Part shown: piece by piece, positions 1 through 5,002 of the stretch
Position numbering within the stretch: position 1 is the first letter of the stretch
How the letters are laid out: every line of letters begins with the position of its first letter
Source of the DNA: a virus
Lineage: Duplodnaviria > Heunggongvirae > Uroviricota > Caudoviricetes
Strand: one strand, 5' to 3'
Virus record (IMG/VR): IMGVR_UViG_2703718851_000002
Span: 1 to 5,407 of that record
Length of the DNA stretch: 5,407 bases
Translations under genes and position numbers: made by a program
The notes under the pieces: model-generated
What the model was told of the DNA's origin: nothing
Seen by the model: only the letters and a program-made list of their open reading frames with translations
The model's database searches: none

Positions 1-81
1 GTGGACAAAAGACTCAGGAATAGACGGGGGGAGATGTCCGTTACTTAACCATTTCTCAATTTCATCGGCATATGTCGGGAA
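1..81 (-). CDS. Host ORF, downstream part (continues the frame of the gene at 4998..5407 once the element is removed); runs off the window start
   Basis: Reverse complement of 1..81 is stop-free in the frame that continues the 4998..5407 minus-strand ORF across a single GGGAA copy (..VFPTYADEIEKWLSNGHLPPSIPESFVH..). Product not recognised. Confidence 0.55.
77..81. repeat. Left copy of 5-bp target-site duplication GGGAA
   Basis: GGGAA directly abuts the Mu-type left terminus (TG at 82..83) and is repeated exactly at 4998..5002 after the right terminus (..GCTTCA). A 5-bp TSD is the hallmark of Mu-family transposition. Confidence 0.8.
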
Positions 82-262
82 TGTATTGATTCACTTGAAG
101 TACGAAAAAAACCGGGAGGACATTGGATTATTCGGGATCTGATGGGATTAGATTTGGTGGGGCTTGCAAGCCTGTAGCGCAAATTTTAGTCGTTAATCAA
201 TGAAACGCGAAAGATAGTAAAAAATTGCTTTTGTTTCATTGAAAATACGAAAAACAAAAACA
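82..262 (+). other. Mu-type left end (attL) with three transposase-binding repeats L1, L2, L3
   Basis: CGAAA-core end repeats at about 82..111 (TGTATTGATTCACTTGAAGTACGAAAAAAA), 195..216 (..TGAAACGCGAAAG..) and 231..258 (..TTTCATTGAAAATACGAAAAAC). Spacing and sequence fit Mu attL from memory. Confidence 0.85.
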
Positions 263-419
263 CAGCAAATCATTTCAATAACAGCTTCAAAAAACGTTCA
301 AAACCGATAACAACCAGGCTGTAACCAAATGACTCATATCACAAATCAGCTCATGCCGTTTAGGTATGTTACATGTGTGATTATGTGAGGTGAAGTATGT
401 TTTAGCTGGTTCATGGTTG

Positions 420-935
420 TTATACGGCTTTTTTTACATCTTGTGGTTCTTGTGAAGGAGCTACAAAACCTTCCTGTTCATGAATACCATACTCTGACAA
501 AATCTCTTTGCGCGCATCTGCTGGTAAAGTTTCTAGCATTTGGGCTAGTTGTATGCACTCACGCGATACGCCGTGCAGAGATTGGATTTGAGTCTGATCA
601 AAGATACTTGGCATTAGTGCTCCAAGTCCGCCTTTACTAAGTAGCTTTAATGCCCTCTGGATTTCCTCTGGTTCTAACTCTGCGACCAAAGCCATTAACA
701 CAGAAGCTAACTTATAAGCTGGCTTATCGCTATCTAATAACTGCGCCCCTCCTAATTCTGCCTGAGTGGCATCAGGTAATGAGCTGATATGGTATTCATA
801 AGCAACTCCCTTTACTCCTTTGATCTGTCTCTTTTTCCATCCCTCATTAGTTGCTTTGCGGCTAATACTACTTGCTGAAGACGGAAGACCAGCAACCCCT
901 TGTAGCTCTTTAGCTGAAAACCATTCTTGTGTCAT
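420..935 (-). CDS. c: Mu-family lysogenic repressor c (D108-like variant; N-terminal winged-helix DNA-binding domain)
   Basis: Supplied ORF 420..938(-). C-terminal half (..[37 protein letters not shown]) closely resembles Mu Repc as recalled; N-terminal part diverges, consistent with a heteroimmune relative. Track start at 938 is GTG only 3 nt after a GAGG Shine-Dalgarno; ATG at 935 (MTQEWFSAK..) is the likelier start. Confidence 0.9.
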
Positions 936-938
936 CAC

Positions 939-1134
939 AAACCTCGCTTTAAATACACTGTGTATTCAAAGAAACAAAAATATATTCATTTTAAAATCAT
1001 CAAGATAGATGAAATTCAAACGAAATATTTGAATACATCATTGCATTGACAATGTATTCACACTAACATTGCTGCATACCTTGTCAGCTACCTTGCGGCG
1101 TAGCTGATGGCGTAGCTTGTGAGGATTGCATTTT
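939..1134. promoter_or_regulatory. c-ner divergent control region (expected early/repressor promoters, operators, IHF site, transposition enhancer)
   Basis: AT-rich 196-bp interval between divergent c and ner start codons. In Mu this interval carries Pe, Pc, operators O1-O3 and the IHF site, and the operators double as the transposition enhancer. Individual sites not mapped here. Confidence 0.55.
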
Positions 1135-1353
1135 ATGGCGATAAAGAAAAGTAAATGTGAAGACAAAAGCAGATACGACATTGTTGCTGATCTGCGCAAA
1201 AGAGGAAAAAGCCTAGCAGCTCTTGGTCGTGAGAACGGTCTCTCTATCTCTACGGTAAAAAATGCCTTGGATAAACCTTACCCTCGGGGTGAAAGAATTA
1301 TTGCCGATGCATTGGGAGTTGAGCCACGAGACCTCTGGCCTTCGAGGTATTGA
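1135..1353 (+). CDS. ner: Ner-family DNA-binding regulator (negative regulator of early transcription)
   Basis: Supplied ORF 1126..1353(+). Resembles Mu Ner (..ADL.KRG.SL.AL.R..G....T..NAL....P.GE.IIA.AL...P...WPSRY) and sits in the canonical position after c. Track start at 1126 is TTG with no spacing from the GAGGA at 1121..1125; ATG at 1135 (MAIKKSK..) has good spacing. Confidence 0.85.
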
Positions 1354-1355
1354 AA

Positions 1356-1532
1356 ATGCAACCACAATGTAATGATTGGTTTTCTGCAAAGAAATTAGAA
1401 GGGCTGATAGGTCTTCCAAAATCCTCTAGCGCGATCTCTCGTAAAGCAAGGTTAGAACAGTGGGTGTTTCGACAGATACACGGGGTAAATCCGTTTAACT
1501 ACAGCTCCATCCTTAAACATCCACTTTCCTGA
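1356..1532 (+). pseudogene. Transposase A 5' fragment (about 43 authentic codons, then out-of-frame read-through of antisense U' sequence)
   Basis: [41 protein letters not shown] matches the winged-helix N-terminus that MuA shares with the repressor (compare [35 protein letters not shown] in the c ORF here). The remaining residues are encoded by the opposite strand of U'. ner stop TGA 1351..1353 and the A ATG at 1356 are 2 nt apart, preceded by GAGG at 1345..1348. Track start at 1350 is TTG. Confidence 0.8.
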
Positions 1533-1802
1533 ATCATCAGCGCGGCGGTTGGCTGTAATATCTGGAACCTCAACGACGCTAAAACCTTCAGGGTTAAGCG
1601 TGGAGGCATCTTTAGTGATGGCGACAATAATATTATTTGCATCGTAAACAATCTTTATTGTGTCTGGCTGAAAGTTTTTCACTTCCTCATACCAGTTTTT
1701 TCCGTCCTCAGAGTAAAGCCAGATAACTCCGTGTTTCTTTGTTAACTCATACTGTTCCAGTGTTTTAGCGTTACCCGCTTTTATGTTCTTTAAGTGCATC
1801 AT
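1452..1802 (-). CDS. Tail-fibre assembly protein U/U' of the G segment, probably 3'-truncated with a short foreign C-terminal tail
   Basis: [64 protein letters not shown] is tail-fibre-assembly-like (Mu U/U', P2 G family). Its start is packed 1 nt after the stop of the upstream fibre ORF. Its last ~10 codons ([10 protein letters not shown]) are encoded antisense to the transposase stub. Confidence 0.8.
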
Positions 1803-3473: not shown

Positions 3474-3540
3474 ATCGATCGGTAATACAGATCGATTATG
3501 CCCCAATAACCACACTCAACCCATGATGTTTTTTAAGATA
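3459..3540 (+). promoter_or_regulatory. mom operon control region: three GATC (Dam) sites, C-activator dyad, T6-spacer promoter
   Basis: GATC at 3459..3462, 3477..3480 and 3490..3493; dyad TTAT-N6-ATAA at 3496..3509 (GATTATGCCCCAATAACC); T6 run 3529..3534 running into TAAGAT 3534..3539, about 30 nt before the com SD AAGGAGGTGA. This matches the published Pmom layout as recalled; exact -35/-10 assignment is inference. Confidence 0.6.
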
Positions 3541-3567
3541 GTGGCGAATTGATGCAAAGGAGGTGAG

Positions 3568-3756
3568 ATGAAATCAATTCGCTGTAAAAACTGCAACAAA
3601 CTGTTATTTAAGGCGGATTCCTTTGATCACATTGAAATCAGGTGTCCGCGTTGCAAACGTCACATCATAATGCTGAATGCCTGCGAGCATCCCACGGAGA
3701 AACATTGTGGGAAAAGAGAAAAAATCACGCATTCTGACGAAACCGTGCGTTATTGA
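3568..3756 (+). CDS. com: Com zinc-finger translational activator of mom
   Basis: 62 aa [27 protein letters not shown].. with a C-x2-C ... C-x2-C zinc-ribbon pattern; strong SD AAGGAGG upstream; 3' end overlaps the mom reading frame, as in Mu. Confidence 0.9.
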
Positions 3757-4414
3757 GTATGAAGGCCAGATTGTTGGCTATGGTTCAAAGGAGCTGCGCG
3801 TTGAAACCATATCCTGCTGGCTGGCCCGCACAATTATTCAGACAAAGCACTATTCCCGCCGTTTTGTGAATAACTCTTACCTCCACCTAGGAGTATTCAG
3901 CGGACGCGATCTGGTTGGCGTTCTCCAGTGGGGATATGCCCTTAACCCCAACTCAGGTCGTCGTGTCGTGCTTGAAACGGATAACCGGGGCTATATGGAG
4001 TTGAATCGCATGTGGCTACACGACGACATGCCCCGCAACTCTGAATCACGGGCCATCAGCTACGCGCTGAAAGTTATCAGATTACTGTATCCGTCAGTGG
4101 AGTGGGTTCAGTCCTTTGCTGACGAACGCTGCGGACGCGCAGGCGTTGTGTATCAGGCGTCGAATTTTGATTTTATTGGCAGCCATGAAAGCACGTTCTA
4201 CGAGCTGGATGGTGAGTGGTATCACGAGATAACGATGAACGCAATTAAGCGCGGTGGACAACGAGGCGTGTATTTACGGGCTAATAAAGAGCGTGCCGTG
4301 GTGCACAAATTTAATCAGTATCGCTACATCAGGTTCCTGAACAAGCGAGCAAGGAAGCGACTAAATACTAATCTATTCAGGATTCAGCCATACCCAAAAA
4401 GCAGTTCTGATTAG
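3677..4414 (+). CDS. mom: Mom DNA-modification enzyme (adenine modification giving restriction resistance)
   Basis: Long ORF overlapping the 3' end of com in another frame and following the gin-com order of Mu; the protein resembles Mu Mom as recalled. The true initiation codon is uncertain: ATG 3677 is the first ATG, but an in-frame GTG at 3707 or another internal start is possible. Confidence 0.85.
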
Positions 4415-4458
4415 TATCATATAAATTTATGTATTTACTCACATACGGAGCATATCAG

Positions 4459-4905
4459 ATGAAAAAATCAAAATTGCTAATCAGTACCATCATCAGCCTA
4501 TTCGTACTAACCGCCTCCTCAGTCAATCACGCTCAAGAAAAAGATTTTGATCCTGAAGTGGCTGCTGATGCAGTCTTAAGGTCCGCCGGGATAGATCCAG
4601 ATAAGAGTGTTGCAAATAAAGCCCCTGCCTCTGGTTTTTGGACCTGCCACGGTATTCGTATGCATATGGGCGTTGATATGGGGTCATGGACAGACCTTGA
4701 TACAGGTGAACTATACACTCAGATAGAAACAGGCCAAATTGACGAACAAGACAAGGATGAAAAGATTAAAGGGACTGATTATCTCTATGCTTTGACTAGA
4801 AATCCTGCGGTTATAAAGTATTTTATCGTTGATAAATCAGGAAAAAATCTTTATATCCGAGATGATGTGAATATTTTTAAGACATATAAATGTAAACGAA
4901 ACTGA
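4459..4905 (+). CDS. Hypothetical secreted/periplasmic protein, 148 aa, cargo gene between mom and the right end
   Basis: ATG 4459 preceded by ACGGAG (the track start at 4429 has no SD). The N-terminus MKKSKLLISTIISLFVLTASSVNHA-QEK is a classic Sec signal peptide with an N-H-A cleavage motif and no lipobox Cys. The mature part is acidic with two Cys and a Lys-rich C-terminus, and the region is visibly more AT-rich than mom. No family recognised. Confidence 0.7.
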   Translation: MKKSKLLISTIISLFVLTASSVNHAQEKDFDPEVAADAVLRSAGIDPDKSVANKAPASGFWTCHGIRMHMGVDMGSWTDLDTGELYTQIETGQIDEQDKDEKIKGTDYLYALTRNPAVIKYFIVDKSGKNLYIRDDVNIFKTYKCKRN

Positions 4906-4919
4906 CATACATAAAACAA

Positions 4920-4997
4920 CTGTCTCAATTGAAGCGCGAAAGTTTGAGTTTTCGTATTTTATTTGAAACGCTTTCGCGCTTTTCGTGCGCCGCTTCA
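4920..4997 (-). other. Mu-type right end (attR) with transposase-binding repeats R1-R3
   Basis: Inverted CGAAA-core repeats (GAAGCGCGAAAG, TTTTCGTATT, GCTTTCGCGC, TTTTCGTGCGCCGCTTCA) ending in ..CA at 4997; matches the Mu R end from memory with a few substitutions. Confidence 0.85.
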
Positions 4998-5002
4998 GGG
5001 AA
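4998..5002. repeat. Right copy of 5-bp target-site duplication GGGAA
   Basis: Identical to 77..81; immediately follows the element terminus. Confidence 0.8.

Follow-up and report, generated by a model that had tools for sequence, protein, structure and literature searches.

A probable decayed prophage of the PhiR68_1 type with mini-Mu anatomy in the druH gene of Escherichia coli N61

We analysed a stretch of 5,407 nucleotides from a viral record (IMG/VR record IMGVR_UViG_2703718851_000002, positions 1 to 5,407; hereafter the window) and found in it an element of the Mu family of 4,916 bp (positions 82-4997), which starts with TG and ends with CA. Positions 1-5392 of the window are identical (100%) to positions 4,064,922-4,070,313 of the chromosome of E. 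coli N61 (NZ_AP028880.1), a strain obtained from bovine mastitis milk in Japan. The element is a decayed prophage of a known phage type that has the anatomy of a mini-Mu. We put at roughly 85% the probability that it is a grounded, defective prophage, that is, a stub of a PhiR68_1-type Mu-family phage that is passed on vertically at a single site within a single clone. A single illegitimate, microhomology-mediated deletion appears to have joined codon 44 of the transposase gene A to the middle of U', a tail-fibre assembly gene. What remains is, by its structure, a mini-Mu with both ends, the operator/enhancer region and a left end expected to bear pac. The element is therefore a derivative of a Mu-family member and not an autonomous member: the A gene breaks off after 44 of its 666 codons and B is missing, in agreement with an earlier sequence-only reading of this DNA in which both genes were said to be gone.

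The ends of the element were compared with those of Mu (AF083977) and D108 (GQ357916), of the genus Muvirus. The left terminus begins TGTATTGATTCACTTGAAGTACG (from 82 the window reads TGTATTGATTCA…) and the right terminus ends TTTCGTGCGCCGCTTCA (up to 4997 it reads …GCCGCTTCA). Over its first 96 nt the element does not differ from the left end of Mu; 1 mismatch is found within 180 nt and 5 within 330 nt, and attL has 95% identity to Mu across 458 nt. The last 30 nt are exactly those of D108 and 1 nt off those of Mu; over 2.2 kb (2800-4997, gene 56 included) the identity to D108 is 98.4%. MuA sites were searched for throughout the 5.4-kb window using the 17-nt consensus YMYNWRAARYRCGAAAR, as given in the D108 record, with up to 2 mismatches allowed. 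Six matches were obtained where 0.95 was expected by chance (six or more occurred in 0 of 200 shuffles), and all six lie at the element's ends, in the expected positions and orientations. In attL (82-260, + strand), which opens with the terminal TG, L1 is found at 92-108, L2 at 197-213 and L3 at 237-253, all on the + strand. In attR (4926-4997) R3 is at 4926-4942 (+), R2 at 4949-4965 (-) and R1 at 4971-4987 (-), followed by the terminal CA. This arrangement, L1 / L2-L3 and R1-R2-R3 with R3 inverted, is the one known for Mu, and a TG…CA element with three MuA sites at each end is what a Mu-family prophage should show. A pac region, which we take to sit where it does in Mu, is expected within attL from the identity of the two left ends. 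The proposal of a Mu-type insertion with both ends present is thus borne out by termini nearly identical to those of Mu and D108 and by six sites in the canonical layout.

The element is flanked by two copies of GGGAA, at 77-81 and 4998-5002. When the flanks were joined through a single GGGAA, the product matched in one piece, at 100% over 369 nt, within an intact yjiT (the host gene also named druH) in at least 12 genomes among the matches listed, and at least 80% of this joined-flank query was covered in 235 other E. coli genomes. Because the empty site is uninterrupted in the yjiT of other genomes, GGGAA is a target duplication made by the insertion and not part of a longer host repeat, as had been supposed. 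The 5-bp duplication and the uninterrupted empty site again place the element with Mu-family prophages.

The parent of the stub is recognised from its full-length relatives. The left block (82-1488, up to codon 44 of A) differs from a prophage in strain E148 by 1 mismatch in 1,407 nt (99.93%) and from the isolated phage PhiR68_1 by 3 mismatches (99.8% over 80-1488). The right block (2800-4997) is 99.7% identical to PhiR68_1 across gixR, gin, com, mom, gene 56 and attR, and Escherichia phage PhiR68_1 (PV340575.1) is the closest isolated phage. Taken together, PhiR68_1 and the prophages of E148, Z0117EC0036, 21KM1392 and others are 99.8-99.9% identical to the element from attL to codon 44 of A. 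These relatives are complete, at 36.5-37.1 kb, whereas the element is about 32.2 kb short. The E148 prophage, for example, is complete at 36,496 bp and lies in a GntR-family gene with a 5-bp duplication of its own, ATCTG. Among 5,426 complete E. coli genomes, full-length relatives of the same immunity type were present in 14, with 91-100% identity over attL-c-ner-A-B, and their host neighbours differed wherever a flanking gene was listed (four records). Since the full-length relatives adjoin different host genes, the parent lineage is an active transposable phage.

The immunity region sets this lineage apart. Gene identities, here and below, were assigned from Pfam and PHROG profile matches, the annotation of the record and comparison with D108 proteins. 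The repressor gene c (420-935, - strand) is intact and encodes 171 aa (WP_019841371.1; Pfam HTH_Tnp_Mu_1, 2.2e-22; PHROG transcriptional repressor). The identical protein occurs in full-length prophages and is 99.4% identical to the PhiR68_1 repressor. Its identity to the repressors of Mu, D108 and SfMu is 40-47% by tblastn and 43-49% by global alignment (about 46-49% for Mu c). Next to it, ner (1135-1353, +) is also intact (72 aa, WP_019841372.1; Pfam HTH_35, 4.3e-25), with 46-64% identity to Ner of Mu, D108 and SfMu by global alignment. The first 80 residues of the cognate A protein are 51-55% identical to those of the same three phages, and the remainder of A is about 99% identical. The N-terminus of the repressor is 65% identical to that of the cognate A over 60 aa and both match Pfam HTH_Tnp_Mu_1, so that the DNA-binding domain shared by repressor and transposase in Mu-family prophages is found here too. 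In Mu and D108 the N-terminus of the repressor likewise resembles that of A (original observations cited in PMC3820752). On these alignments the module of c, operator, ner and the A N-terminus is an immunity/enhancer type separate from those of Mu, D108 and SfMu. The earlier description of the element as Mu- or D108-like applies in part: attL is Mu-like and the right end with gene 56 is D108-like, but the immunity module is of the PhiR68_1 type.

Between c and ner, the interval 936-1134 is predicted to hold the operators, the early promoter and the transpositional enhancer, a function inferred from Mu (PMC3820752). It carries repeated TGTATTCA / TGAATACA motifs and differs by 0-1 nt from that of the full-length relatives. 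A promoter scan of the interval returned 1 match against 1.0 expected by chance. The difference from E148 at window position 961 was considered as an operator mutation and rejected, as SA53-3, 2014C-3075 and LR882057 carry the N61 allele, which is the commoner one, and E148 is the exception. An inverted match of 20 nt with 85% complementarity was also seen between 229-248, in the L3 region of attL, and 960-979, at the first TGTATTCA motif; it may be due to chance.

The deletion junction was mapped by a three-way comparison of the window, the A gene of E148 and the U' genes of strains 755 and FDAARGOS_1059. It falls at 1486-1488, at a TAA present in both parents. A runs …CACGGGGTAA|GAGGAG…, U' runs …GCCGTATAA|ATCCGTTT… and the window has …CACGGGGTAAATCCGTTT…, so that TAA alone is the overlap of the two parental sequences. 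In E148 coordinates the missing DNA amounts to about 32.2 kb. On one side of the junction, the A stub (1356-1488, +) continues into a 58-aa fusion ORF ending at 1532 and covers model positions 1-34 only of the 134 in Pfam HTH_Tnp_Mu_1. On the other side is the truncated U' (1486-1802, -; Pfam Caudo_TAP), of which 317 of 528 nt remain and the C-terminal end is missing; in the annotation it figures as a partial tail fiber assembly protein. Two other routes to the deletion were considered and rejected. Deletion by the Gin invertase, between a gix site and a pseudo-gix, does not fit: the junction lies in U' and A, away from gix, neither of its sides is gix-like and TAA alone is common to them. A deletion driven by the Mu ends, as in abortive transposition, does not fit either, with both ends and both copies of the duplication intact.

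We propose that the stub formed in three steps, which are read from the sequence comparison. A full-length phage of about 37 kb would have integrated by Mu transposition into druH (yjiT), duplicating GGGAA. A single illegitimate recombination between two TAA triplets would then have taken out about 32.2 kb, starting at codon 45 of A and ending in mid-U', within the G segment. With this DNA would have gone the transposase, B, kil, all middle and late regulators, the genes for lysis, head and tail, and the central gyrase site. The element as it stands lacks B, kil, gam, mor and C, every gene for lysis, head or tail, the left gix and the central gyrase site, and no transposase domain was found in the other ORFs of the window (ORF list and Pfam). 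The order of events, insertion before deletion, and the expression states of the retained genes given below are what we infer.

The distribution of the junction points to one clone. Among the complete E. coli genomes the whole arrangement occurs in N61 only, and no copy of the element was found at a different site. The two proteins specific to the junction, a 116-aa U' fusion and the 58-aa A' fusion, were found on 8 and 14 public contigs, respectively, which come from several NCBI assemblies and from Logan assemblies of separate sequencing runs. DruE is the left neighbour in 14 of 14 contigs, the covered part is 100% identical to the window in each, and the N-terminal part of DruH stands on the right in the one contig that reaches far enough. 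No contig with the junction was found in IMG/VR or in the JGI metagenomes. The protein cluster (90%) of the ORF at 1356-1532 also contains proteins of 255-263 aa annotated 'transposase, partial', from E. coli and Salmonella Montevideo contigs of up to 403 kb; these may represent further truncated A genes. At its right end the window has 15 bases (5393-5407, GTACTGACCCCAAAA) that differ from N61 and from the identical assembly GCA_965259585.1, each of which goes on with CTGCAATGAGCGG…; the difference seems to stem from the construction of the window rather than from the element.

These contigs also bear on whether the DNA could stem from a laboratory mini-Mu, from vector contamination or from faulty assembly, a caveat that the sequence-only reading had kept. 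Engineered pieces of Mu do occur in laboratory strains of the same collection (MFDpir, S17-1, ST18 and BW2952). The host here is a bovine mastitis isolate, however, field isolates from several projects carry the element, and the same junction recurs both in NCBI assemblies made independently and in separate runs assembled by Logan. Mud vectors carry markers and the Mu cts repressor. The element has no marker gene and no resistance or reporter ORF, and in place of cts immunity it has an immunity region unlike that of Mu or D108, with the low repressor identities given above. We regard an origin in the laboratory or in assembly as having next to no chance of being correct, and the caveat can be dropped.

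A different question is whether the element still moves, as a natural mini-Mu that is mobilised, replicated or packaged by co-resident or superinfecting Mu-like phages. For Mu transposition, one molecule must carry both ends, L and R, and the enhancer in cis (PMC3820752). The claim that L1-L3, R1-R3 and the operator/enhancer interval are retained is upheld, as their sequences are intact and virtually the same as in functional phages. The A proteins of Mu, D108, SfMu and the cognate phage have 99% identity in their end-binding and catalytic parts, and each of these phages should therefore recognise the ends. Laboratory mini-Mus with internal deletions transpose and replicate when given A and B, and short ones do so without need of the gyrase site (PMC10052514, PMC3820752). 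Against this stands the lack of any sign of movement: there is one copy per genome, never several sites, with the same left neighbour in all contigs, zero divergence among them, and the junction missing from the viral and metagenome collections. Nor was a source of A and B seen on the N61 chromosome. The suggestion that an intact Mu-like prophage elsewhere might supply them found no support, since a DNA-level search of that chromosome, reaching identities of about 65-70% or better, gave no A gene elsewhere.

The resident repressor is a further obstacle. It is intact and, by analogy with Mu, should silence a cognate, homoimmune helper and occupy the operator/enhancer. The A protein of a heteroimmune helper would fit the ends but would bring a different enhancer-binding domain, the one that is 51-55% identical. 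Mobilisation in trans therefore seems possible in principle, would probably be inefficient and is without comparative support. We consider it unlikely that the element is a functional non-autonomous transposon, and the earlier view of it as mobilisable in trans is not supported. In its most developed form, this alternative would make the element a working, satellite-like mini-Mu: a heteroimmune or repressor-insensitive Mu-type helper would supply A and B, the 4.9-kb element would be transposed and amplified, and headful packaging from the left-end pac would take in about 34 kb of right-hand host DNA (yjiS to yjiK and beyond). We give this form, too, a slim chance. Were it true, one would expect locus-specific transduction, perhaps at a cost to the helper, and the element would be the first natural counterpart of the laboratory mini-Mu, as far as our literature search showed.

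Several points weigh against the reading of a grounded prophage that decayed in place. A full-length ancestor at the druH GGGAA site was not found, as no record among the 5,426 genomes covered at least 80% of a query made of the flank plus A. The order of insertion followed by deletion is thus a matter of parsimony rather than observation. In the N61 chromosome record, no second match to A codons 45-544 was found and attL-c-ner matched once (blastn, 'distant' setting), in a search at the DNA level that reaches identities of about 65-70% or better and covers the chromosome only, so that a very divergent or plasmid-borne prophage would be missed. All retained ORFs are intact, which fits a recent origin (zero SNPs among the contigs) and equally fits selection on some of them.

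The missing ancestor is also what favours the reverse order, in which a mini-Mu was made elsewhere and reached druH by helper-assisted transposition or mini-Mu transduction; the 5-bp duplication proves that the ends were transposed and says nothing of the contents between them at the time. This order, however, needs a rarer chain of events: a mini-Mu has to form, a helper has to be at hand, the element has to be packaged along with about 34 kb of host DNA, and A has to be supplied in the recipient. Neither a second copy nor a donor site is known, and no helper remains in the N61 chromosome. We therefore judge deletion before insertion to be highly improbable, and keep to insertion of a complete phage followed by deletion.

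The right part of the element holds, in addition to the U' fragment, a single gix site, the gene of the serine invertase Gin and three further genes. The variable C-terminal arm of the tail fibre, Sv', from the invertible G segment, spans 1804-2838 (-; Pfam Gp34_trimer, and translation). Its frame is open up to gix, and the constant N-terminal part and the promoter are missing. The remaining gix, gixR (~2803-2838), has the sequence TTCCTGTAAACCGAGGTTTTAGATAA, equal to the D108 repeat annotated there. The gin gene (2892-3473, +; Pfam Resolvase, 2e-50, and HTH_7) is intact; its product has 2 substitutions in 193 aligned residues relative to D108 Gin and a C-terminus 4 residues shorter. With one gix site left, gin is orphaned. 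A whole-window search gave a second matching place in the N61 chromosome, and left-end and A-gene queries matched one place; the second place thus presumably belongs to another prophage, in its tail-fibre/invertase region, and could be a substrate for the orphan Gin.

Downstream, com (3568-3756, +; Pfam Zn_ribbon_Com) is intact and its product is identical to D108 Com, and the DNA modification gene mom (3677-4414, +; Pfam Mom, 2.7e-75) is intact with 3 substitutions relative to D108 Mom. In Mu, mom needs the activator C, as is also stated in the Mu record. Since the gene for C is deleted, Mom should be silent. The last gene (4459-4905, +) is a homologue of the D108-specific gene 56 and encodes 148 aa, 100% identical to D108 gp56 (PHROG 15648, function unknown). 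The product has a hydrophobic N-terminus resembling a signal peptide (MKKSKLLISTIISLFVLTASSVNHA), and no Pfam match to it was found. Gene 56 occurs in D108 and PhiR68_1 and is absent from Mu, SfMu and the E148 prophage, which in this differs from the element. The functions most likely still active would be the repressor, giving immunity to PhiR68_1-type phages, and possibly Gin and gene 56.

With c, ner, gin, com, mom and gene 56 all intact, the stub might be a domesticated module kept by selection, be it for PhiR68_1-type immunity, for the action of Gin on other invertible segments or for a secreted-looking gp56. The deletion took exactly the genes that are lethal upon induction, and the stub persists in isolates from several independent sequencing projects. 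Yet the contigs are 100% identical, and the clone is therefore too young for purifying selection on the ORFs to show. Moreover, mom is kept without its activator, and the non-functional Sv' and U' fragments are kept too, which looks chance-like rather than tailored. We view domestication as a doubtful explanation, and a grounded prophage remains our preferred one.

The arm of the G segment beside gin is 95-96% identical to SfMu and to a Mu-like prophage of FDAARGOS_1059. Compared with the S-U arm of PhiR68_1 it is a different allele (85-93%) in the opposite orientation. The U' fragment is 97.7% identical to its homologue in strain 755. The block from U' through Sv' and gix to gin (1486-3280) likewise has 97.7% identity to its counterpart, the tail-fibre/invertase region, in a P2-like prophage of that strain, which is nearer than any Mu-family phage examined. 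This likeness suggests that Mu-like and P2-like phages have exchanged invertible tail-fibre cassettes.

The gene struck by the insertion belongs to a defence system. Its C-terminal fragment (1-81, -), annotated as a partial STY4851/ECs_5259 family protein, ends in the left GGGAA; the right GGGAA and the N-terminal part occupy 4998-5392 (-), as judged from annotation, the empty site and the match to DruH3. With the element removed, yjiT encodes 1,096 aa and matches PADLOC DruH3 of type III Druantia (positions 3-1099/1100, 1827 bits). The adjoining helicase (2,114 aa) matches DruE3 (2699 bits). Adjacent DruH and DruE define a type III Druantia system, and the locus lies within the hsd-mcr defence region. 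The element splits DruH of N61 at about residue 965, so the Druantia III system is presumably inactive in the N61 clone.

The element can also be set beside known systems. With Mu and D108 it shares TG…CA ends, the layout of MuA sites, a 5-bp duplication and the gene order c-ner-A … G segment-gin-com-mom; it differs from them in having neither A nor B nor anything between A and U', and in its separate immunity/enhancer type. It resembles the laboratory mini-Mus (the internal deletions of the Brussels group, Mud vectors and mini-Mu plasmids) in keeping the ends, lacking the interior, depending on A and B and being short enough to make the central gyrase site dispensable (PMC10052514, PMC3820752). 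It differs from them in being natural, in having no A, B or marker and in carrying a wild-type repressor of another immunity type; the classical replicating mini-Mus retained A and B (PMC10052514). Like the grounded prophages of enterobacteria, it has lost the lytic genes, kept the repressor and accessory genes and passed to vertical inheritance (PMC6379469). Those prophages have integrase att sites, whereas the stub has none and, because its parent was a transposable phage, keeps transposon-type ends and a target duplication. Formally it is still a substrate for a transposase acting in trans. From phage satellites of the P4-like and PICI kinds it differs in that its enzymes are Gin and Mom only; no integrase, primase/replicase or capsid-redirecting gene was found in the window (ORF list, Pfam and PHROG). 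Our literature search on natural mini-Mus or mini-muduction yielded laboratory mini-Mu work and general reviews of defective prophages, and no natural case.

The analysis gives a corrected annotation for a 4.9-kb region that pipelines call as scattered phage genes plus two pseudogenes, and the stub provides a clean clonal marker for the N61 lineage. The insertion into druH may outweigh the stub itself in usefulness, as a Druantia III system knocked out by a prophage offers a natural contrast, of the isogenic kind, for work with Mu-like phages. For the Mu family, the element documents an immunity/enhancer type unlike those of Mu, D108 and SfMu. It is also a natural example of a single step that disarms a transposable prophage and leaves both its immunity gene and its transposon ends in place.

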